Assembly (NCBI GenBank): GCA_965261685.1
Contig: CBDHDI010000018.1
Coordinates: forward strand, 13,029 to 77,028
Origin: Dehalococcoidia bacterium
GTDB lineage: Bacteria; Chloroflexota; Dehalococcoidia; UBA2979
Reading direction: 5' to 3'
Length of the DNA: 64,000 nucleotides
The position numbers were made by a program, and so were the translations under genes. Numbering within the stretch: the first letter of the stretch is position 1; each line of letters opens with the position of its first letter. The notes under the pieces were generated by a model. It saw nothing but the letters and a program-made list of their open reading frames with translations. It did not search any database and was not told the origin of the DNA. This document shows positions 6,125 through 63,459 of the stretch, one piece after another.

Positions 6125-6484
6125 CGCCGCCCCGTCTCCCGGCGGGCGCAGCGCCCGCCTCGTTCCGCCGCCCTGCGTGCGCAGGACGGATGTTCTTCCG
6201 GCTCCAGCGTCGGTGATCGATAACGGCGTGACCATCCCCTATAAGGGGATATCGCGCGTGAAGTCCCCCTGCCGGGGGCTGTGGCCCATGCCTGGGGCGG
6301 ATTTCCATGTCAGCGGGCTGTACAGAGGACAGACGTTGGTAACGATGGGGCAGTCGTCCCCGAAACCCCAGTGGCGCCAACGGAACGAGCGCCCCTACAG
6401 GTGGGGCAGGCCGATCAGTTCTTGTACAGTCCCCGTTCCCACGGGGTTGGGGCGGGAAATGGGGCAGATGAGGCAGCCCCGAAG

Positions 6485-6727
6485 TGTCGTCGGTCAGCGA
6501 CTCCGTCAGTAGCTAACGATTCTGTCCTTCCATGAAGGAAGTGACATTGCACCAGCAGGAACAGGCACGGCTCCATGTACTCAACAGCGTCCTCGCCGAG
6601 GAGATCACGATCGGGCAGGCGGCGGAGTTGATGGACCTCAGCGAACGCCACGCCCGCCGGCTCCTGGCCGCCTACCGCGAGCTCGGCGCGGGGGCGCTCG
6701 CCCACGGCAACCGCGGCCGCCGCCCCC
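6485..6727 (+). mobile_element. Truncated ISNCY/IS1202-like element (left end plus transposase N-terminus)
   Basis: Starts TGTCGTCGGTCAGCGA. ORF MKEVTLHQQEQARLHVL is near-identical to the start of 41093-42637; homology is lost after ...HGNRGRRP. Confidence 0.85.
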
Positions 6728-37026: not shown

Positions 37027-37800
37027 TCAATCAGCTCCTTCCTGCGTCTCGAGCAGCGCGCGGTGCGGTGAGAGTCGCTGGCGGTAGCTCTCGCCCTCGA
37101 TCACGATCTGGTAGCTGGCGTTGGCGAGCCGGTCGAGTGCGCTGTTGCCGAGGATCGGGTCGTCGAAGAGGCCGAGCCACTCCTCGACGGCGCGGTTCGA
37201 GGTGATGACGAAGCTGGAGCTGCGGTGGCGCCCGATAATCAGCTCGTAGAGGTCGATCGACTGCTGTGCGCTGAGCCGGTGCAGCCCGAGGTCGTCGAGG
37301 ATCAGCAGGTCGGGGGCGAGGAAGCTGCGGAAGGCCTTCTCGGTGGAGTGGTCGACCCGGGCCTGCGCCAGCTCGCGGAAGTACTGGTCGGCTGAGACGA
37401 AGCGCACGCTGCGCCCGGAGCGCACGGCGGCGTAGCCGAGCGCCTGGGCGAGGAAGCTCTTGCCGACGCCGACGGGGCCGACGAGCAGGACGTGCTCGCG
37501 GCGGTCGAGGAAGCGCAGCGAGCAGGCGGCGTCGAGCAGCCTGCGGTCGAGCCGGATGGAGGCCGACCAGTCGAAGTCCTCGAGCCTGCAGAGCTGCTCG
37601 AAGCCGGCCTGGCGGAGGCGCAGCTCGAGGCGCCCGTGGTCGCGGCGGCTCACCTCGTCGGCGAGGACGATCTGCAGGAAGTCGGCGTAGTCGAGCCCGT
37701 CGCGGCGGGCGAGGGCGATGCGCTCGGGCAGGGTGTCGAGCATCGGGCCGAGCTTGAGGCGCTTGAGCAGCGGGCGCAGCTCGGCGGTCGTGGCGGTCAT
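37027..37800 (-). CDS. istB: IS21 helper ATPase
   Basis: GPVGVGKS, LLILDDLG, TSNR and SALDRL. ATGA overlap with istA. Confidence 0.93.
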   Translation of the reverse strand: MTATTAELRPLLKRLKLGPMLDTLPERIALARRDGLDYADFLQIVLADEVSRRDHGRLELRLRQAGFEQLCRLEDFDWSASIRLDRRLLDAACSLRFLDRREHVLLVGPVGVGKSFLAQALGYAAVRSGRSVRFVSADQYFRELAQARVDHSTEKAFRSFLAPDLLILDDLGLHRLSAQQSIDLYELIIGRHRSSSFVITSNRAVEEWLGLFDDPILGNSALDRLANASYQIVIEGESYRQRLSPHRALLETQEGAD

Positions 37801-39377
37801 CGTGAGGCTCCTGTCGTGGTCTGCGTGGCGGTCAGTGCAAAGACGGCGCCGGGGCGGGCGAAGCGGCCCGGCGGCGGCGGCAGCGGCTGCGACGGCGCCG
37901 TGGTCTCCTGCTCGAGGGCCTCGACGAGGATGCGCTCGACGCGGCGCACGTCGACGAGGTCGACCTCGAGCGCGCGGCGGCAGGCGGCGTCGAGGCGGGC
38001 GGGGGAGTAGCGCTCGGCCAGGCGCAGCAGCTTGTGGCCCTGCCGCAGCTTCGCCCAGGGCAGCGGCCCCTCGAAGAGCCGCTCGGCGAGTGCGCCCACA
38101 GCCTCGCCCAGCTCGGCCGCGCGCCGCTGCAGCTGCTCGGGCGCACGCAGCGTGTAGGGGCTGAGCTCGGCCGGGTAGTCGTTGGGGTCGGTGGCGCGCC
38201 CTCCGCGCTGCTGGCGCGGGTGGACCTTGAGCAGCGCGCCGCGGTGGTAGATGCGCACCAGCTTCGCGCCGAGTTGCACCTCCACCTTCTGCCCCGGCGG
38301 GCAGAGCTCCGACGGCACCGAATAGAGTGCGTACTGGCAGGCGACGTGGTGGTCGGCGTGGACCGTCGCCGTACGCCAGTCGGGGACCTCGTAGGGCTCC
38401 CCGTCCCAGGGGGCGAGCAGCGGGCGCTCCTCCTCCTCGAAGACCTCGAGCGGGCGTTTGCGGGTCGTCCCGTGGATGCGTTGCCCCGCCACCTCGAGCG
38501 ACCAGCGCCGGGCGGCGTCGCGCAGCTCGGCGAGGTCCCGGAACTGCGCGCCCTTGAAGAGGCGCTCGCGCACGTAGGGGACGCTGCGCTCGACCCGAGG
38601 CTTGTCGCGAGGCTTGCGCACGCGCGCGGGGTCGCTGATGAAGCCACGCTGGCGGGCGTACTCCAGGAAGCCCCGCGTGAAGCGCGGGTGCAGCGCGTCG
38701 GCCCCGGCCACGGCGGCCGGGAAGTTGTCGATCACGAGGTAGCGGGGCACGCCCTCGAAGCACGCCCAGGCCGCCTCCAGGCCCTCGACCACCGCGTGCA
38801 GCGTCTGGCTGGTGGTGGGCCAGACGAAGCAGTGCCGCGAGTAGCGCCAGACCACGATCAGCGCCCAGACCGTGCGGCGCCGCCCGCTCTCGGGGTCCGG
38901 GATGAGGCCGAGCCGGCCGAAGTCCAGCTCCGCGACCTCACCCGGCGGCCCGTCCTCCATGCGCACGGTCACCGGCTGCCGGCGACCCCAGCCGCGGCGG
39001 GCGATGAAGCGCCGCAGCGAGCTGTAGGAGACCTCGCAGCCGCGCTCGGCGAGCAGTTCATGGATCCGCGTCACCTGCAGGCGCTCGGCCTGCAGCCAGC
39101 GCTCGATCTGCTCCGCCCAGGGCGAGAGCAGCTGCTCGCTCGGTACCTCCGCGCGGCGCGGGCCGGTGCGGCTCAGCGTCGCCAGCTGGGCGAGCTGCTG
39201 CTCACTCGGCTCGGGGCCACCTGGCTGGAGCCCGGCCGCCTCGGCCGCCGCGATGTAGCGCCGCACCGTCACGCGCGACAGCCCCGTGCCGCTGGCGATG
39301 CGACGCTGGCTGAATCCCGCCTGCCAGCGGCGGATGATTTCCCTGCTCTCCACTCGATGCACCTCCCGGTAGGCCAT
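37797..39377 (-). CDS. istA: IS21 transposase
   Basis: HTH, AELDFG, VIDNF, PRDKPRVE and YSVP motifs. Confidence 0.93.
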   Translation of the reverse strand: MAYREVHRVESREIIRRWQAGFSQRRIASGTGLSRVTVRRYIAAAEAAGLQPGGPEPSEQQLAQLATLSRTGPRRAEVPSEQLLSPWAEQIERWLQAERLQVTRIHELLAERGCEVSYSSLRRFIARRGWGRRQPVTVRMEDGPPGEVAELDFGRLGLIPDPESGRRRTVWALIVVWRYSRHCFVWPTTSQTLHAVVEGLEAAWACFEGVPRYLVIDNFPAAVAGADALHPRFTRGFLEYARQRGFISDPARVRKPRDKPRVERSVPYVRERLFKGAQFRDLAELRDAARRWSLEVAGQRIHGTTRKRPLEVFEEEERPLLAPWDGEPYEVPDWRTATVHADHHVACQYALYSVPSELCPPGQKVEVQLGAKLVRIYHRGALLKVHPRQQRGGRATDPNDYPAELSPYTLRAPEQLQRRAAELGEAVGALAERLFEGPLPWAKLRQGHKLLRLAERYSPARLDAACRRALEVDLVDVRRVERILVEALEQETTAPSQPLPPPPGRFARPGAVFALTATQTTTGASR

Positions 39378-39629
39378 CGCTGCTCCCTCCCCTGGGGATA
39401 CAGCCGATGGTGGCCCTACCGGCGACCGGGCTGGTCGCGATGCCCTGGCGGGGGCGGATCAATGATCCTGGCGAAGTGGTGTCGACGGTCAGCGATTTCG
39501 TCAGTAGCTAACTGGTCAGATTGGCATGAGGGCCGGTCTCCTCCTCAGGGGGATACTCGTCCCCGAAACAGCGGCCTCGATTGGGCCAGTAGCGGCTCTG
39601 CGGAGCCTTGACGAGGTAGGAGACCGGCC

Positions 39630-40718
39630 ATGCAGCAGGATATCGCAACGACGCGGAGCATTGAGGGCAGGGAAGGGTCAGGGGTCACCATCGGCCTCGA
39701 CGTGGGCGACCGCTACACACACATCCACGCCCTCGGCGCCGGCGGGGAGGTGATACGCGAGCGGCGCGTCCGCACCACGGCGGCGGCGCTGGGCGCAGCG
39801 CTGACCGGCCTCCCCCCGGCGCGGGTCGTGCTCGAGGCGGGGCCGCGCTCGCCGTGGCTGAGCCGCGTCATGGCGGACCTCGGCCACGAGGTCATTGTCG
39901 CCAACCCCCGCCAGGTCGCGCTGATCGCCCGCAGCCAGCGCAAGACCGACCGCCTCGACGCCGCGTGGCTGGCGCGGCTGGGGCGCTTCGACCCGGAGCT
40001 GCTCGCCCCGATCCGCCACAGGAGCGAGCAGAGCCAGTATGACCTCGCTGTGGTGCGCGGCCGCGACGCGCTCGTGCGCTCCAGGACGCTGCTCATCAAC
40101 CACGTGCGCGGGGCCGTCAAGGCCTGCGGCGCCGCGCTGCCGTCATGCACGGCCCGGGCCTTCCACCGCAAGACGGCGGAGCACATCCCTGACGGGCTAC
40201 GGGCGGCGCTGCTGCCGCTGGTGGAGGCGATCGGCGAGCTCACCGCGCACATCGCGCGGGCCGACCGGGAGATCGAAGCACTGTGCGAGGCTCGCCCCGA
40301 GACCGCGGCGCTGCGCCAGGTCAGCGGCGTGGGGCCGATCACCGCGCTCACGTTCGTGCTGACGATCGAGGATCCAGGGCGCTTCCCGAAGAACCGGGAG
40401 GTGGGGGCCTACCTCGGACTCGTGCCCCGGCAGCGCGAGTCAGGAGAGCGCGCGCCGCAGCTCGGCATCAGCAAGAGCGGCGACGCGGGCCTGCGGCGAC
40501 TGCTGGTGCAGGCCGCGCACTACATCCTCGGCCCCTTCGGGCCCGACACCGACCTGCGCCGCTGGGGTGAGCGCTACGCGGGAACAGGGGCGGGCAACGC
40601 GAAGAAGCGCGCGGTCGTGGCCGTCGCGAGGCGGCTGGCGGTGCTGCTGCTCGCGCTGTGGAAGACAGGCGAGGTCTACGAGCCGCTTCGCCACGCCGCT
40701 GTCCGGGAGGCCGCGTAG
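39630..40718 (+). CDS. IS110/IS1111 DEDD recombinase
   Basis: IGLDVG, VLEAG, KTDRLDA and LGLVPRQRESG...ISKSGD motifs. Confidence 0.95.
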   Translation: MQQDIATTRSIEGREGSGVTIGLDVGDRYTHIHALGAGGEVIRERRVRTTAAALGAALTGLPPARVVLEAGPRSPWLSRVMADLGHEVIVANPRQVALIARSQRKTDRLDAAWLARLGRFDPELLAPIRHRSEQSQYDLAVVRGRDALVRSRTLLINHVRGAVKACGAALPSCTARAFHRKTAEHIPDGLRAALLPLVEAIGELTAHIARADREIEALCEARPETAALRQVSGVGPITALTFVLTIEDPGRFPKNREVGAYLGLVPRQRESGERAPQLGISKSGDAGLRRLLVQAAHYILGPFGPDTDLRRWGERYAGTGAGNAKKRAVVAVARRLAVLLLALWKTGEVYEPLRHAAVREAA

Positions 40719-40830
40719 CGGGGAGCGGCTGCCGCAGGCGGCACCGCTAGCGACGACCGAGACCGAGCGGAAAGCGGCAACCCGGACAGGAGCGAAGCGT
40801 TCGAAGCCTTGCGCGTGATGCCGAACCACC

Positions 40831-40963
40831 GGGCGACTGCGAAGATTCGCTTGTCCCATCGAGGACGTTGGTCAGCTGGCAGCGCCCCCTGGAAGCAGGA
40901 TGTGCCTTCATGCACCGGGCCCGATGCGCGGCCCACGGAGAGTGCGGATAGAAGCTCGGCACA
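40831..40963 (+). ncRNA. Predicted bridge/seekRNA core (target- and donor-binding loops)
   Basis: Stem GGGCG(A)CTGC/GCAGCGCCC encloses AGATTCGCT, a GTCC/GGAC hairpin and TGGTCAGC, matching both target strands. A second stem TGTGCC/GGCACA encloses ATAGAAG, matching the donor end. Confidence 0.72.
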
Positions 40964-41092
40964 GGCTCCGCTCCCGGACATCACGAGCAGCTCAGCATGG
41001 ACCAAGTGTCGCGCCACGGCGCCACGCCGGACGAGGCCGCCACGTCGGCCTTGCAGAAAGACCGTCCCTCATAGAAGCGATTCTGTCCTTCC

Positions 41093-42637
41093 ATGAAGGA
41101 AGTGACATTGCACCAGCATCAACAGGCACGGCTCCACGTACTCAACAGCGTCCTCGCCGAGGAGATCACGATCGGGCAGGCGGCTGAGTTGATGGACCTC
41201 AGCGAACGCCACGTCCGCCGGCTCCTGGCCGCCTACCGGGAGTTCGGCGCGGGGGCGCTCGCCCACGGCAATCGCGACCGGCGCCCTCACAACGCCGTCC
41301 CCGAGGCCGTCGCGGCTGCCGTCGTGCGCCTCGCCGCCACGCGCTACCCGGGCGCCAACCACACCCACCTCACCGAGCTGCTCGAGGAGCACGAGGACCT
41401 CGCCCTCAGCCGCCCCACGGTGCGGCGCATCCTGACGCGGGCCGGCATGCCCAGCCCGAGGCGGCGCCGCCCGCCACAGCACCGCGTGCGGCGCGAGCGC
41501 ATGCCACGGGCGGGGATGCTGCTCCAGGTCGACGGCAGCCATCACGCCTGGCTCGAGCAACGCGGCCCGCGCTTCGCCCTGCTGCTCGCCGTCGACGACG
41601 CCACGGGCGCCGTCGTGCACGCGCTGTTCCGCCCCGCCGAGGACGCCCGCGGCTACTTCCTGCTCATGGAGCAGGTGCTGCGCCGCTCAGGCATCCCGCT
41701 CGCCCTCTACAGCGATCGCCACGCCGTCTTCCGGGCCTCCGCCCAGCAGCGCGCGGGAGGCGAGGCGTCGACCCAGTTCGCGCGGGCGATGGCGGAGCTG
41801 GGGGTCCGCCTGATCTTCGCCCGCTCACCGCAGGCCAAGGGCCGGGTGGAGCGCATGGCGGGCACGTTCCAGGACCGCCTCGTGACCGAACTGCGCCTCG
41901 CCTCAGCATCCACCATCGGCGAGGCGCAGGCCGTGCTCGAGCGCTTCCTGCCGCGCTTCAATGCGCGCTTCGCCGTCGCCGCCAGCCAGCGCGAGCCGGC
42001 CTGGCGGCCGCTCGACCCGGCACTCGACCTCGGCGCCATCCTCGCCTTCCGGCACACCCGCAGCGTCGCGCGCGACAACACCGTCAAGTACCACTGGCGC
42101 ACGCTGCAGCTGCTGCCCTCAGCGCAGCGGCCCAGCTACGCCGGGGCGCGCGTGGACGTGCTCGAGCGCCCAGGCGGCGAGCTCGCGGTGCGCCACCGGG
42201 GGGAGACCATCCCTTCGCGGCTCGCCCCGCCCCGCTCAGGCGTGCTGCGCGAGCGCCGCTCCGAGCTGGCGCGCGACCCGGCGCTCGAGCGCCTCGCTCT
42301 GGGCCTCGGCTCCGGGGTGGCCCCGCCCGACCAGCCGGAGCTTCCTGCCGCGGCGAACGGGACCGCCGCCAACGGTGCCTCACGGCAGGCCCGGGTCAAG
42401 CCGCTGCGCCCGCCCACCCCGCGCCAGCAGACGCTCTGGAAGGCCATCCGCCAGGCACAACTGCAGGGGCTCTCGATGCGCGCCACCGCCCGCGTGCTGG
42501 GCATCTCGCGCAACACCGTCCGCCGCTATGTGCTCGCCGGCGGCCCACCCGGACGCCAGGGTGCGGCATCATCTACCGAGCAGCGACCAGCGCGAGAGGA
42601 CATTTTCGCTGAACCGTTAAGCGGACAAAGTCGCTGA
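41093..42637 (+). CDS. ISNCY/IS1202-like DDE (rve) transposase
   Basis: LQVDGS, AVDDATG, YSDRH and SPQAKGRVER motifs; C-terminal HTH. Confidence 0.93.
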   Translation: MKEVTLHQHQQARLHVLNSVLAEEITIGQAAELMDLSERHVRRLLAAYREFGAGALAHGNRDRRPHNAVPEAVAAAVVRLAATRYPGANHTHLTELLEEHEDLALSRPTVRRILTRAGMPSPRRRRPPQHRVRRERMPRAGMLLQVDGSHHAWLEQRGPRFALLLAVDDATGAVVHALFRPAEDARGYFLLMEQVLRRSGIPLALYSDRHAVFRASAQQRAGGEASTQFARAMAELGVRLIFARSPQAKGRVERMAGTFQDRLVTELRLASASTIGEAQAVLERFLPRFNARFAVAASQREPAWRPLDPALDLGAILAFRHTRSVARDNTVKYHWRTLQLLPSAQRPSYAGARVDVLERPGGELAVRHRGETIPSRLAPPRSGVLRERRSELARDPALERLALGLGSGVAPPDQPELPAAANGTAANGASRQARVKPLRPPTPRQQTLWKAIRQAQLQGLSMRATARVLGISRNTVRRYVLAGGPPGRQGAASSTEQRPAREDIFAEPLSGQSR

Positions 42638-42782
42638 CCGTCGACAGAAGTGGATCAATGACCCTGGCGATCTCGCCGTTTTCCGGTCTATAGATCCTGG
42701 TGATTCACAACGTCAGCTACCTGCTGCGACACTGAGACCACCGTCACTTGGCGTACACCTGTTCTGGCAGCGCAGGCAGGCC

Positions 42783-56004: not shown

Positions 56005-56422
56005 GCGCGCTTCTTCGCGTTCCGTGCTCCTGTTCCCGCGTAGCGCTCACCCCAGCGACGCAGATCGGTATCCGGCCCGAAGGGACCGAGGATGTAGTGC
56101 GCAGCCTGCACCAGCAGCCGGCGTAGGCCTGCGTCGCCGCTCTTGCCGATGCCGAGTTGCGGCGCGCGCTCGCCCGAGTCGCGCTGCCGCGGCACGAGCC
56201 CGAGGTAGGCCCCCACCTCACGGTTCTGCGGGAAGCGCCCCGGGTTCTCGATCGTCAGCACGAACGTGAGCGCGGTGATCGGCCCCACGCCGGTGACCTG
56301 GCGCAGCGCCGCGGTCTCGGGGTGGGCCTCGCACAACGCCTCGACCTCCCGCCCGGCCGCCGCGATGCGCACGGTCAGCTCGCCAATCGCCTCCACCAGC
56401 GGCAGCAGCGCCGGGCGCAGCC
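56005..56422 (-). pseudogene. 3' fragment of IS1111 transposase (partner of 62888-63459)
   Basis: LRPALLPLVEAIGEL...NAKKRA; homologous to 39630-40718. Truncated before the stop and the non-coding region. Confidence 0.88.
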
Positions 56423-58050
56423 TGTCGACGAGCAGCGATTTCGTCAGTGCAAGAGAGCAGCGACTTTGTCAGTCCCGCCGTCTCCGTCGGAGGATGCCGC
56501 GGTGCCGGTCTGGCGTCCAGGCACGCCGTTGGCCCGGACGTAGCTGCTGACGGTGTCGCGGGAGATCCCGAGCAGCCTGGCGGTTGCCCGCATCGAGAGT
56601 CCCTGTAGCCGCGCCTGCTGGATCGCCTTCCAGCGGGCGCGCTGTCGGGGCGTGGGTGGGCGGAGCTGCTTGCTCCCGGGCGCGGGCTTCACGGCGGCCC
56701 CGTTGGGCGCACCCTCCGCCGCCGGGACGGCAGGCGCCACGGGGAGCCGCCGGGGTGCTCCTCCGGAACCGAGCCCTGAGGCGATGCGCTCGTGGTCGGG
56801 GTTCCGGGCCAGCTCGGAGCGCGCCGCCCTCAACACCCCGGCGCGCGGCGGCGCCTCGCGCGAGGCGATCGTCTCCCCCTGGTGCAGGACGGAGAGCTCG
56901 CCGCCCGGCCGTTCCAGCACCTCGACCCGTGCCCCGGCGTAGCTGGTCCGCTCGCGCCCGGGCAGCAGCTGGAGCGTGCGCCAGCGATACTTGACCGTGT
57001 TGTCGCGGGCGACGCTGCGGGGGTGCCGGAAGCCGAGGATGGAGGCGAGCGGGAGCGCGGGGTCGAGCGGGCGGTAGGCCACCGCGGGCTCTGCCGCAGG
57101 GACCCGGAAGCGGGCGTTGAAGCGCGGCAGGAAGCGCTCGAGCACGGTCTGGGCCTCGGCGATGGTGGAAGCCGAGGCGTCGCTGAGTTCGGTCACCAAC
57201 CGGTCCTGGAACGTCCCTGCGGCACGTTCCACGCGGCCCTTCGCCTGCGGTGAGCGGGCGAAGATCTGGGTGATCCCGAGTTCCCGCATCGCCCGTGCGA
57301 ATTGGGTTGCGACCTTCAGGCCCCGCCGTCCGTCGGAGGAGGCTTTGAAGACGCCGTGGCGGTCGCTGTAGAGGGCGAGCGGGATGCCGCAGAGCCGGAC
57401 GATCTCCTCCAGCAGGAGGAAGTAGCCGCGCGCGTCCTCGACGGGGCGGAAGAGGGCGTGCACGGCTGCGCCGGTCGCATCGTCGACGGCGAGCAGCAAG
57501 GCGAAGCGCGGACCGCGTTGCTCGAGCCAGGCGTGGTGGCTGCCGTCGACCTGGAGCAGCATCCCCTCGCGGGGCATCCGCTCACGCCGGACACGGTGCT
57601 CGGGGGGCCGGCGGCGGCGGGGACTCGCGATGCCGGCCCGCGCCAGGATCCGGCGGACGGTCCAACTGCTCACGTCCAGGTCCTCGTGCTCCCAGAGCAA
57701 CTCGGCGAGGTGGGTGTGGTTCGCTCCCGGGTAGCGGGTGCTGGCGAAGCGCACCACGGCCGCGGCGACGGCGGCCGGGACGGCGTTGTGCGGACGGCGC
57801 CCGCGGTTGCCGTGCTCCAACGCGGCGGTTCCGCGCGCACGGTAGGCGGCGAGGAGCCGCCACGCGTGTCGCTCGCTGATGCCCAGGATCTCGGCGGCCT
57901 GCGAGGCCCGCAGATCTCCGGCCATCACCCCTTCGAGTACGTAGCGTCGTGCTTCTTCGGACTGCTGCACCTGTCACCCCCTGCTCGCTGGCTGGGGACT
58001 GACAGAATCGCTGCTCCGTTAACTACTGACCGAATCGCTGCTCAACGACA
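56423..58050 (-). mobile_element. ISNCY/IS1202-like element (second subtype)
   Basis: Ends TGTCGACGAGCAGCGAT and ATCGCTGCTCAACGACA with internal repeats. Confidence 0.92.
56444..57970 (-). CDS. ISNCY/IS1202-like transposase
   Basis: LQVDGS, DDATG, YSDRH and PQAKGRVER motifs. Confidence 0.93.
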   Translation of the reverse strand: MQQSEEARRYVLEGVMAGDLRASQAAEILGISERHAWRLLAAYRARGTAALEHGNRGRRPHNAVPAAVAAAVVRFASTRYPGANHTHLAELLWEHEDLDVSSWTVRRILARAGIASPRRRRPPEHRVRRERMPREGMLLQVDGSHHAWLEQRGPRFALLLAVDDATGAAVHALFRPVEDARGYFLLLEEIVRLCGIPLALYSDRHGVFKASSDGRRGLKVATQFARAMRELGITQIFARSPQAKGRVERAAGTFQDRLVTELSDASASTIAEAQTVLERFLPRFNARFRVPAAEPAVAYRPLDPALPLASILGFRHPRSVARDNTVKYRWRTLQLLPGRERTSYAGARVEVLERPGGELSVLHQGETIASREAPPRAGVLRAARSELARNPDHERIASGLGSGGAPRRLPVAPAVPAAEGAPNGAAVKPAPGSKQLRPPTPRQRARWKAIQQARLQGLSMRATARLLGISRDTVSSYVRANGVPGRQTGTAASSDGDGGTDKVAALLH

Positions 58051-62778: not shown

Positions 62779-63459
62779 TGGCATGAGGGCCGGTCTCCTC
62801 CTCAAGGGGGATACTCGCCCCCTGAAACAGCGGCCTCGATGGGCCAAGAGCGGCTCGGAAGAGCCTTGACGAGGTAGGAGACCGGCCATGCAGCAGGATA
62901 GCGCAACGACGCGGAGCATTGAAGGCAAGGATGGGCCCGCCATCACCGTCGGCCTCGACGTGGGCGATCGTTACACGCACGTCCACGCGCTCGGCGCCGG
63001 CGGGGAGGTGATACGCGAGCGGCGCGTCCGCACCGCGGCGGCGGCGCTGGGCGCAGCGCTGACCGGCCTCCCGCCGGCGCGGGTCGTGCTCGAGGCAGGG
63101 CCACGCTCGCCGTGGCTGAGCCGCGTCGTGGCGGACCTCGGCCATGAGGTGGTCGTCGCCAACCCTCGCCAGGTCGCGCTGATCGCCGGCAGCCAGCGCA
63201 AGACCGACCGGCTCGACGCCGCGTGGCTGGCGCGGCTGGGGCGCTTCGACCCGGAGTTGCTCGCCCCGATCCGCCACAGGAGCGAGCAGAGTCAGCACAA
63301 TCTCGCCGTGGTGCGCGCCCGCGACGCGCTGGTGCGATCGAGGACGTTGCTCATCAACCACGTGCGCGGGGCCGTCAAGGCCTGCGGCGACGCGCTGCCG
63401 TCGTGCACGGCCGTGGCCTTTCACCGCAAGACGGCGGACCACATTCCCGACGGGCTGCG
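62779..63459 (+). mobile_element. IS1111 element, 5' half (transposase 62888-63459 truncated)
   Basis: TGGCATGAGGGCCGGTCT left end as at 39522; VGLDVG and KTDRLDA motifs; cut at HIPDGLR by ISNCY. Confidence 0.9.

Follow-up and report, generated by a model that had tools for sequence, protein, structure and literature searches.

An IS1111-family insertion sequence of Dehalococcoidia with a predicted guide RNA that matches the left end of an ISNCY/IS1202-related element

A 64-kb stretch of DNA from a Dehalococcoidia bacterium (contig C18 of the source genome, G000; the window) carries a 1558-bp insertion sequence (IS), here called IS-A, lodged in the left end of a second IS of ISNCY/IS1202-related type; coordinates of the form 39,xxx-42,xxx are positions in this window. 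Very probably, IS-A is an active or recently active member of the IS1111 family whose recombinase is guided by an RNA encoded in its own 3' non-coding region, at about 40831-40963. An initial annotation, made from the letters alone, had proposed an RNA-guided parasite of IS1202-type ends; the sequence-level parts of that proposal are supported by the occupation of one and the same site by all eight known copies, by independent insertions, and by the covariation of putative guides with their targets among natural relatives.

Boundaries and classification of IS-A

The element itself comprises the following features.

39520..41077, plus strand: IS-A, IS1111-family insertion sequence, 1558 bp; delimited by an empty site (140/140) and by whole-genome copies
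39526..39539, plus strand: left subterminal inverted repeat ATGAGGGCCGGTCT, complementary at 13 of 14 positions to 41059-41072
39630..40718, plus strand: recombinase gene, 362 aa, with a DEDD (RuvC-like) N-terminal and a Tnp20 C-terminal domain and the sequence GLVPRQRESG; matches in Pfam, NCBIfam and the PDB
41059..41077, plus strand: right subterminal inverted repeat AGACCGTCCCTCAT (41059-41072), then the extension AGA, then the core AG; read directly, relatives compared
41078..41084, plus strand: right target half CGATTCT, differing at one position from the CGAATCT that the guide specifies

Excision of 39520-41077 had been predicted to restore TGGTC-AG-CGATTCT, and this is borne out elsewhere in the genome, where the joined flanks of IS-A run uninterrupted (G000:C27:237448-237587, 140 of 140 positions identical), an empty site that fixes the boundaries of the element. 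An ambiguity of 2 nt arises because AG precedes the left end and also forms the right tip, so that the span can equally be written as 39518-41075, with the core AG duplicated; read directly, AG is the core shared by the target and the right tip of IS-A. A search of G000 with the 1558-bp element returned four full copies, including that of the window, which are 100% identical, and two damaged ones, cut at position 1504 and interrupted at position 1432, respectively, together with eight relatives at 88% identity and one at 76%. The left junction TGGTCAG/ATTGGC (here and below a slash marks the point of insertion) occurs in all six copies and the right junction CATAGAAG/CGATTCT in five, the remaining copy being truncated at its 3' end, and the free 14-mer TGGTCAGCGATTCT occurs once, as the empty site. 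The extension ATTGGC that precedes the left subterminal repeat becomes, with the core counted, AGATTGGC (8 nt), a one-base variant of the 7-nt AGATGGC found in relatives and in the copy of a second genome, G012.

The single gene of IS-A (39630-40718) encodes a recombinase that matches PF01548 (DEDD_Tnp_IS110, 1.5e-17) and PF02371 (Transposase_20, 1.9e-20), scores 243 bits against NF033542, "IS110 family RNA-guided transposase" (cut-off 140), and is homologous to ISCro4 (1.4e-11) and IS621 (1.8e-10) in the PDB. Its GLVPRQRESG aligns with GLTPRRYESG of ISCro4 and fits the motif GL-P----S(T)G. In pairwise comparisons alone it is about 28% identical to IS5075 and IS4321, over 77% of its length, and 28-35% identical to other IS110-family entries. 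IS1111 elements have long subterminal repeats and those of the IS110 group do not (PMC11187229; PMC11208160); these repeats usually measure 11-13 bp (PMC11187229) or 7-17 bp (PMC11208160), and the terminal extensions are asymmetric, the left one being 7 (or 6) nt long and the right one 3 nt (PMC11187229). The domains of the recombinase, subterminal repeats paired at 13 of 14 positions, asymmetric extensions, the SG motif and a non-coding region that is longer downstream (359 nt, 40719-41077) than upstream of the gene (110 nt, 39520-39629) thus place IS-A in the IS1111 group as delimited in PMC11187229, in agreement with the assignment made initially. No promoter or terminator consensus was found within 39440-41140.

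Loop strands of the predicted RNA and their targets

The part of the 3' non-coding region that bears on target choice contains two features.

40831..40887, plus strand: target-binding loop of the predicted seekRNA/bridge RNA; both stems invariant in 14/14 relatives, loop strands variable
40888..40899, plus strand: linker hairpin CCUG-GAAG-CAGG between both loops; stem invariant in 14/14 relatives and present in the minimum-energy fold

The initial annotation had described here a stem that closes an internal loop, with guide-like strands on either side of a GTCC/GGAC hairpin, and direct reading confirms this architecture. In the outer stem GGGCGACTGC (RNA GGGCGACUGC, 40831-40840) pairs with GCAGCGCCC (40879-40887), with one bulged A, and the inner hairpin (40853-40866) is formed by GTCC at 40853-40856 and GGAC at 40863-40866; minimum-energy folds reproduce both. 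The 3' loop strand (40869-40876; DNA TGGTCAGC, RNA UGGUCAGC) equals the top strand of the target, TGGTC+AG+C, at 8 of 8 positions, as stated initially. The 5' loop strand (40843-40851; DNA AGATTCGCT, RNA AGAUUCGCU) is, by the earlier count, the reverse complement of AGCGATTCT at 8 of 9 positions; that count stands, with the refinement that AGAUUCGCU is fully complementary to AG+CGAATCT, the form that the target takes in two related genomes. The two guide strands overlap in the target by three nucleotides, AGC. In IS1111-type seekRNAs a top-strand match likewise lies 5' of a bottom-strand match and overlaps it in the target (PMC11187229), and the order of top-strand guide, hairpin and bottom-strand guide is found in all 12 guide types described below. 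In a plasmid copy of IS5075, read as a control, AAAACGGAA complements the right flank TTCCGTTTT and is followed by a hairpin and by a strand that repeats the top-strand sequence spanning the junction.

By this model AGAUUCGCU would pair with the top strand of the core AG and the 7 nt to its right, and UGGUCAGC with the bottom strand, from 5 nt left of the core through the core to one base beyond it. Together the strands would specify the 14-bp site TGGTC-AG-CGAATCT, and recombination at the AG core would give a single orientation of the element. Production of the RNA, its binding by the recombinase and the chemistry of strand exchange are steps that we infer from sequence.

The strongest argument that the loop strands are guides comes from relatives of IS-A. 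A close relative of the recombinase was present in 7 of the 41 genomes searched (G000 included) and in 5 of the 18 from the same genus. Loop strands and flanks were extracted from the matched loci and from 20 further regions with a strict pattern, a looser one having yielded mostly false loops; the resulting 50 rows collapsed to 29 distinct combinations of guide and site, representing 12 guide types, of which only the 13 non-core positions were scored. Elements lacking one flank were left out of the scoring, as were six copies of a subfamily (IS-B) with an intron-interrupted left end. Against its own flanks a guide scored on average 9.93 of 13, with at least 8 at 25 of the 29 sites and at least 10 at 20 of them, these sites being partly non-independent in that several share a guide; mismatched pairings of guide and site (n=319) averaged 4.75, with 5 of the 319 at 9 or above. 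Each of the 12 guide types has at least one site with a score of at least 8. The scaffold around the loops is invariant among the aligned relatives and the loop strands vary, and recombinases 86-91% identical to that of IS-A are found at very dissimilar sites, each of which matches the loop strands of the element that occupies it. The 12 natural guide variants track their own flanks. IS-B, for example, targets the istA gene of IS21-like elements at GGCGAAGCAG/CGGCTGAC; its six copies with a left flank unlike the guide ceased to contradict this pattern once an intron was recognized between flank and left end, the true flank GGCGAAGCAG fitting the guide.

Site specificity and independent insertions

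The survey of other insertions suggested alongside the initial proposal gave a uniform answer: all eight IS-A copies, in three genomes (six in G000 and one each in G012 and G004), lie at TGGTCAG/CGA(A/T)TCT, seven of them in ISNCY left ends. The G012 copy occupies the same position in the ISNCY left end, with the right flank CGAATCT, which is perfect to the guide. The G004 copy interrupts an ordinary open reading frame (ORF) at AATGGTCAG/CGAATCTGAC, a perfect 14-mer outside any ISNCY element, which argues that it is the sequence, rather than the ISNCY context, that is recognized. Across five relatives a single free 14-mer was found, in an unoccupied ISNCY left end of G004.

The site mismatched at +4 (T for A) has been used at least five times in G000. 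Four first repeats reading CGGTCAGCGATTCT, which agree with the used site at 13 of 14 positions and carry two mismatches to the guide, are unoccupied; so is another ISNCY relative at each of its 11 left ends, which read GGAGCAGCGATTCT. Two other ISNCY left ends in G000, both with altered sites, are unoccupied as well. One reads TGGTCAGGGAATCT; the other, a relic in the window (6484-6616; G000:C18:19512-19644) followed by only about 209 bp of ISNCY body, lacks exactly TGGTCAGC, the stretch matched by the bottom-strand guide, and therefore cannot be targeted. The unoccupied near-matches of G000 fit the low tolerance of double mismatches reported for IS621 (PMC11208160).

The G000 insertions are largely independent. 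Compared with the window copy, the ISNCY bodies that adjoin IS-A show identities of 100, 100, 95.9, 90.7 and 89.8% (a sixth is only partly preserved), and the left-end haplotypes of the occupied ISNCY copies differ, whereas the IS-A copies are 100% identical; IS-A must therefore be much younger than the ISNCY copies that host it. In one public run, contigs span the empty site (window 39519/41076) and include the GGGGCTAAC left-end haplotype, both copies of which are occupied in the G000 assembly; this hints, from contigs only, at a filled/empty polymorphism of ISNCY left ends in the community. Should the model hold, the recombinase together with the non-coding region and a donor bearing the junction of right and left ends (RE-LE) would yield insertion in one orientation at the AG core of TGGTCAGCGAATCT.

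A putative donor-binding loop

Downstream of the linker hairpin lies a second loop.

40900..40963, plus strand: putative donor-binding loop, from covariation with the element ends and compensatory hairpin changes
40903-40910, plus strand: candidate right-donor guide UGCCUUCA, 5' strand of the donor loop
40912-40915 / 40942-40945, plus strand: inner stem of the donor loop, GCAC / GUGC
40917-40921 / 40930-40934, plus strand: hairpin of the donor loop, GGGCC / GGCCC, with three pairs showing compensatory changes
40948-40955, plus strand: putative left-donor guide AUAGAAG(C), equal to right end plus core

The initial annotation had placed ATAGAAG within a stem formed by TGTGCC and GGCACA and had found no convincing second donor guide. 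Of this description the match of ATAGAAG (40948-40954) to the right end plus core (41071-41077) holds; in the L subfamily both the loop strand and the right end read ATGGAAG. As a stem, the TGTGCC/GGCACA helix is not supported: its pairing is lost in 5 of the 14 aligned relatives and nothing compensates for the loss, and the region is probably a guide instead. A candidate for the missing guide can now be proposed at 40903-40910, because that helix lacks support and because this strand changes with the left end: UGCCUUCA complements G-A-x-G-G-C-A of the core plus left end (AGATGGCA in relatives), and in subfamilies D and J a change of the left end from ATGGC to ATGGG is accompanied by one of the 5' loop strand from GCC to CCC (it reads CCCC). 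In subfamily L a pair of the right-donor strand becomes G-U, and in subfamily J the alternative partner strand, GGCACA, is unchanged while the left end changes. Our confidence in this second donor guide is moderate, since the independent changes are few. The donor loop would read the joined ends of an excised circle, with AUAGAAG representing the right end and UGCCUUCA the left.

Contrary observations and alternative explanations

A number of observations weigh against RNA guidance of IS-A as set out above. Although folding recovers the outer stem and inner hairpin, the predicted stability is no greater than that of shuffled sequence (z -0.31 and +0.15), so that the energies favour neither side. 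A scan of 39000-42000 matched no Rfam family; a sub-threshold Twister-sister match (E 0.45) inside the recombinase gene was treated as chance. Only one of the five scaffold stems varies across 14 aligned relatives; the other four are therefore uninformative on pairing either way. RNA-library contigs cover only parts of the recombinase gene of relatives, 90-99% alike, and leave 40742-41046 uncovered, the three libraries holding 4-10% of the sampled words and all runs being contigs, hence evidence of neither expression nor silence. One unoccupied perfect site remains in G000 and one in G004, and every target in G000 mismatches the guide at +4 (CGATTCT versus CGAATCT). The ISNCY bodies of C18 (the window) and C26 are identical, each with its own 7-bp duplication, and this pair could represent one insertion followed by movement of the ISNCY::IS-A composite. 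For the donor loop, the support amounts to one or two independent changes per strand (one compensated on the left-donor strand, in the L type), and the left ends of G000 and G004 carry an extra T relative to UGCCUUCA, for which the window copy would need a bulge.

To these must be added the 4 of 29 sites that misfit their own guide (loci L014, L036, L048 and L072). L036 and L048, in G017, and L072, in G015, each agree at 11 of 13 positions with another guide, that of the D type in the first two and that of the K type in the third, their own guides scoring only 3-4; D-type and K-type elements co-reside in the genomes concerned. Bridge RNAs work in trans in E. coli (PMC11208160). The pattern suggests that a guide RNA borrowed in trans from a co-resident subfamily may account for these three sites, in which case D-type RNA supplied in trans to an F-type donor would lead to insertion into TTTTTCAG/CAGCCTGCT. 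L014 (G000:C27:61369-62890) is a mosaic with ends identical to IS-B and a middle that differs by 10-12%, carrying B guides at a foreign site; an E-type guide was considered as an explanation of this site and set aside, its score being 7/13.

Could the uniform location of IS-A reflect a single entry into one ISNCY copy, multiplied thereafter as the passenger of a transposing composite? The C18 and C26 composites, 100% identical over the 1569-bp ISNCY body, are what such passage would leave, and a related case exists in the six copies of an IS21-like element that carry the same nest of IS-B and intron. As an explanation of the whole it is very improbable and, in effect, already refuted by the divergence of the other occupied ISNCY bodies around identical IS-A copies, by their differing left-end haplotypes and by the G004 copy, which sits in a gene outside ISNCY at the same 14-mer; for gene conversion, no more than 40 bp of homologous sequence would be available to the left. 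Still less credible is direct recognition of the ISNCY repeat by the recombinase, with the loop matches due to chance or to a captured copy of the target. The window by itself offers just matches of 8/9 and 8/8 in a 359-nt region, and a fold that is not unusually stable; such recognition is nevertheless contradicted by the covariation of guide and site, since recombinases so alike are found at sites that have little in common, the loop strands of each element, within an invariant scaffold, giving the sequence of its own site.

Somewhat more room must be left for the target loop as the sole guide, the "donor loop" being scaffold, the ends being recognized by the recombinase via the subterminal repeats, and the AUAGAAG match a by-product. 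SeekRNAs are short (82-96 nt) and defined by their target matches (PMC11187229), the long subterminal repeats separate IS1111 elements from the IS110 group, and the right-donor guide matches at 6 of 8 positions, with the bulge mentioned above. We nonetheless consider this unlikely: in the L subfamily AUAGAAG (there AUGGAAG) and the right end have changed in step, as have the 5' strand and the left end in D and J (GGCACA staying as it is in J), and two-loop bridge RNAs are predicted in 93% of IS1111 elements (PMC11208160).

The ISNCY element as host

The element that receives IS-A is represented in the window by the following features.

39473..39479, plus strand: left copy of a 7-bp target duplication, GAAGTGG; right copy at 42647-42653; read directly
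39480..39519, plus strand: outermost 40 bp at the left of the ISNCY element, with the terminal inverted repeat from TGT, the first repeat and the left target half
41093..42646, plus strand: remainder of the host ISNCY element, with the transposase gene (41093-42637, 514 aa) and the right inverted repeat (42624-42646)

Its terminal inverted repeats (39480-39502 and 42624-42646; 23 nt, 91% complementary) both begin TGTCGAC, and to the right of IS-A its sequence resumes with CGATTCTGTCC at 41078. The transposase scores 411.5 bits against NF033594, "ISNCY family transposase" (cut-off 250), matches HTH_23/29/28, with rve_3 at only 7.7e-4 and below its own cut-off, and is 37% identical to ISKpn21-type transposases, which have been placed in the ISAba32 subgroup of the IS1202 family (10.1101/2022.12.17.520857). 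All three copies of this element (ISNCY-1) that retain both original flanks show 7-bp duplications (GAAGTGG, CTGATTG and GGCTAAC); in the IS1202 family, target duplications measure 5-6, 15-17 or 27-28 bp according to subgroup (10.1101/2022.12.17.520857). The initial description of the target as IS1202-like is therefore sustained by the TGT ends, by a transposase of helix-turn-helix plus DDE type and by its similarity to an ISAba32-subgroup member, but not by the duplication, which falls outside the subgroup ranges, though near that of ISAba32; for this reason we call the element ISNCY/IS1202-related and name no subgroup.

At the ISNCY left end there are two repeats of the form GGTCAGCGA-N4-GTC, and two similar ones at the right end, which are likely binding sites for the transposase. 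The first left repeat is CGGTCAGCGATTTC (39486-39499), and the insertion splits the second, whose TGGTCAG (TGGTC plus core AG) lies at 39513-39519. The site is 39 bp inside the ISNCY end and 15 bp upstream of the transposase start codon (41093), so that insertion places 1.56 kb between this codon and the terminal repeat; IS-A probably impairs the ISNCY element or subjects it to read-through from within IS-A. Across the genus, nearly every occurrence of the 14-mer is in that subterminal repeat at the left end of an ISNCY element, and IS-A therefore behaves as a parasite of the ISNCY element.

Further mobile elements in and around the IS1111 elements

Elements of the IS1111 type are themselves interrupted at two fixed points. 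A group II intron lies, in antisense, in their left end between AGA and TGGCATGAGG (TGGCATG in IS-B), as in L095:393-2311 (G000:C27, about 771342-773260); it encodes a 576-aa reverse transcriptase (RVT_1, 2.7e-36) and matches RF02005 at 165.6 bits and, below threshold, RF00029 at 33.3 bits. The same junction recurs at loci L007-L010, L012, L013, L039/L090 (G004) and L061 (G012), in three subfamilies and three genomes; in G000 an IS21-like element, itself in six copies, contains the intron, and six IS-B copies carry it. At the second point, GGATAG/AAGC, which falls within the DNA for the donor-binding loop, lies a 1281-bp IS110-group element with a 362-aa DEDD/Tnp20 recombinase, a 5' non-coding region and the core CT (L096:73-1353; G000:C19:2632-3912), which interrupts the C19 copy of IS-A. 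The same junction is found in a relic at G000:C26:18400-19680 and at L050 and L090 (G004), and in the 5' region of this element a reading by eye shows a loop, closed by a stem, with strands that fit GCTTCT and CTATxCG of its site.

Two halves of an IS1111 relative lie elsewhere in the window, at 62779-63459 (element positions 3-682, 92%) and, on the opposite strand, at 56005-56426 (positions 672-1093, 89%). Each abuts an end of a second ISNCY-type family, ISNCY-2 (about 63460; 56423-58050), of which the genome holds 11 left ends; this looks like the reverse relation, an ISNCY element having inserted into an IS1111 element, followed by rearrangement. Directly to the left of the ISNCY copy that hosts IS-A, an IS21-like pair occupies 37027-39377 on the minus strand, consisting of an IstA-like protein with rve and Mu-transpos_C_2 domains and an IstB (PF01695, 4.6e-54), and the region as a whole is a pile-up of IS elements.

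It is conceivable, although we would put this at somewhat less than an even chance, that the mobile elements of the genus form a stack in which one targets another, mostly by base-pairing, with IS-A entering ISNCY, others entering IS1111 elements at two fixed points, and subfamilies borrowing guides in trans.

Relation to known systems and significance

That an IS1111 member may be aimed at the terminal repeat of another transposon is a principle already known from IS4321 and IS5075, which target the terminal repeats of Tn21-family transposons (cited in PMC11187229 and PMC11208160). Those elements and IS-A have in common the DEDD recombinase (though at only about 28% identity over residues 21-300), subterminal inverted repeats, a 3' non-coding region and this kind of target; IS5075 also has the same guide layout. 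They differ in that the target of IS-A is an ISNCY/IS1202-related IS rather than a Tn3-family transposon, in the site, IS-A using only the left end and there the second, subterminal repeat, with the core AG, and in the host, an uncultivated Dehalococcoidia genus. The seekRNA elements ISEc11, ISPa11, ISKpn4 and ISPst6 (PMC11187229) resemble IS-A in a 3'-encoded RNA region with overlapping top- and bottom-strand matches in the same order, in the GL-P----S(T)G motif and in extensions of 7 and 3 nt (8 nt on the left in the window copy), but differ from it in their targets; experiments have shown that their RNAs bind the transposase and can be reprogrammed, properties that we infer for IS-A. IS621 (PMC11208160; structure 8WT6 and others) shares with IS-A a target loop and, on the present reading, a donor loop, a dinucleotide core common to target and donor, covariation of guide and DNA and a homologous recombinase. 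The RNA of IS621, however, comes from the 5' (left) end and has its strands in the reverse order, whereas the predicted RNA of IS-A lies in the 3' region; the core of IS621 is CT and its subterminal repeats are only 2-3 bp long, against AG and 14 bp, and its right target guide covers 4 nt in the wild type, compared with the core plus 7 nt in IS-A (PMC11208160).

Since its mechanism would be that published in 2024, the element itself is no surprise. In the literature searched and the readable supplements of PMC11187229 we found no paper on IS1111/IS110 elements aimed at ISNCY/IS1202 ends, though other supplements might list such a target; to this extent the initial suggestion that these ends form an undescribed target class is sustained. 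New in relation to known elements are the ISNCY/IS1202-related left-end target, the AG core, the host lineage and the natural series of 12 guide variants.

This series amounts to a natural experiment in reprogramming, in which one conserved scaffold carries 12 pairs of guides with observed sites in six closely related genomes, and from which the rule of 5 nt, AG core and 7 nt can be read. It also provides in vivo evidence on mismatches, a U-T pair at +4 being tolerated in six recent insertions and sites with two or three mismatches being empty. From an ecological perspective, it presents an RNA-guided element that is confined almost entirely to the end of another IS and is itself the target of two further elements. 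Finally, for practical purposes, the recombinase, RNA, 14-bp target and donor junction of IS-A make up a full set of candidate components, from the less-studied IS1111 branch and from a GC-rich Chloroflexota host.

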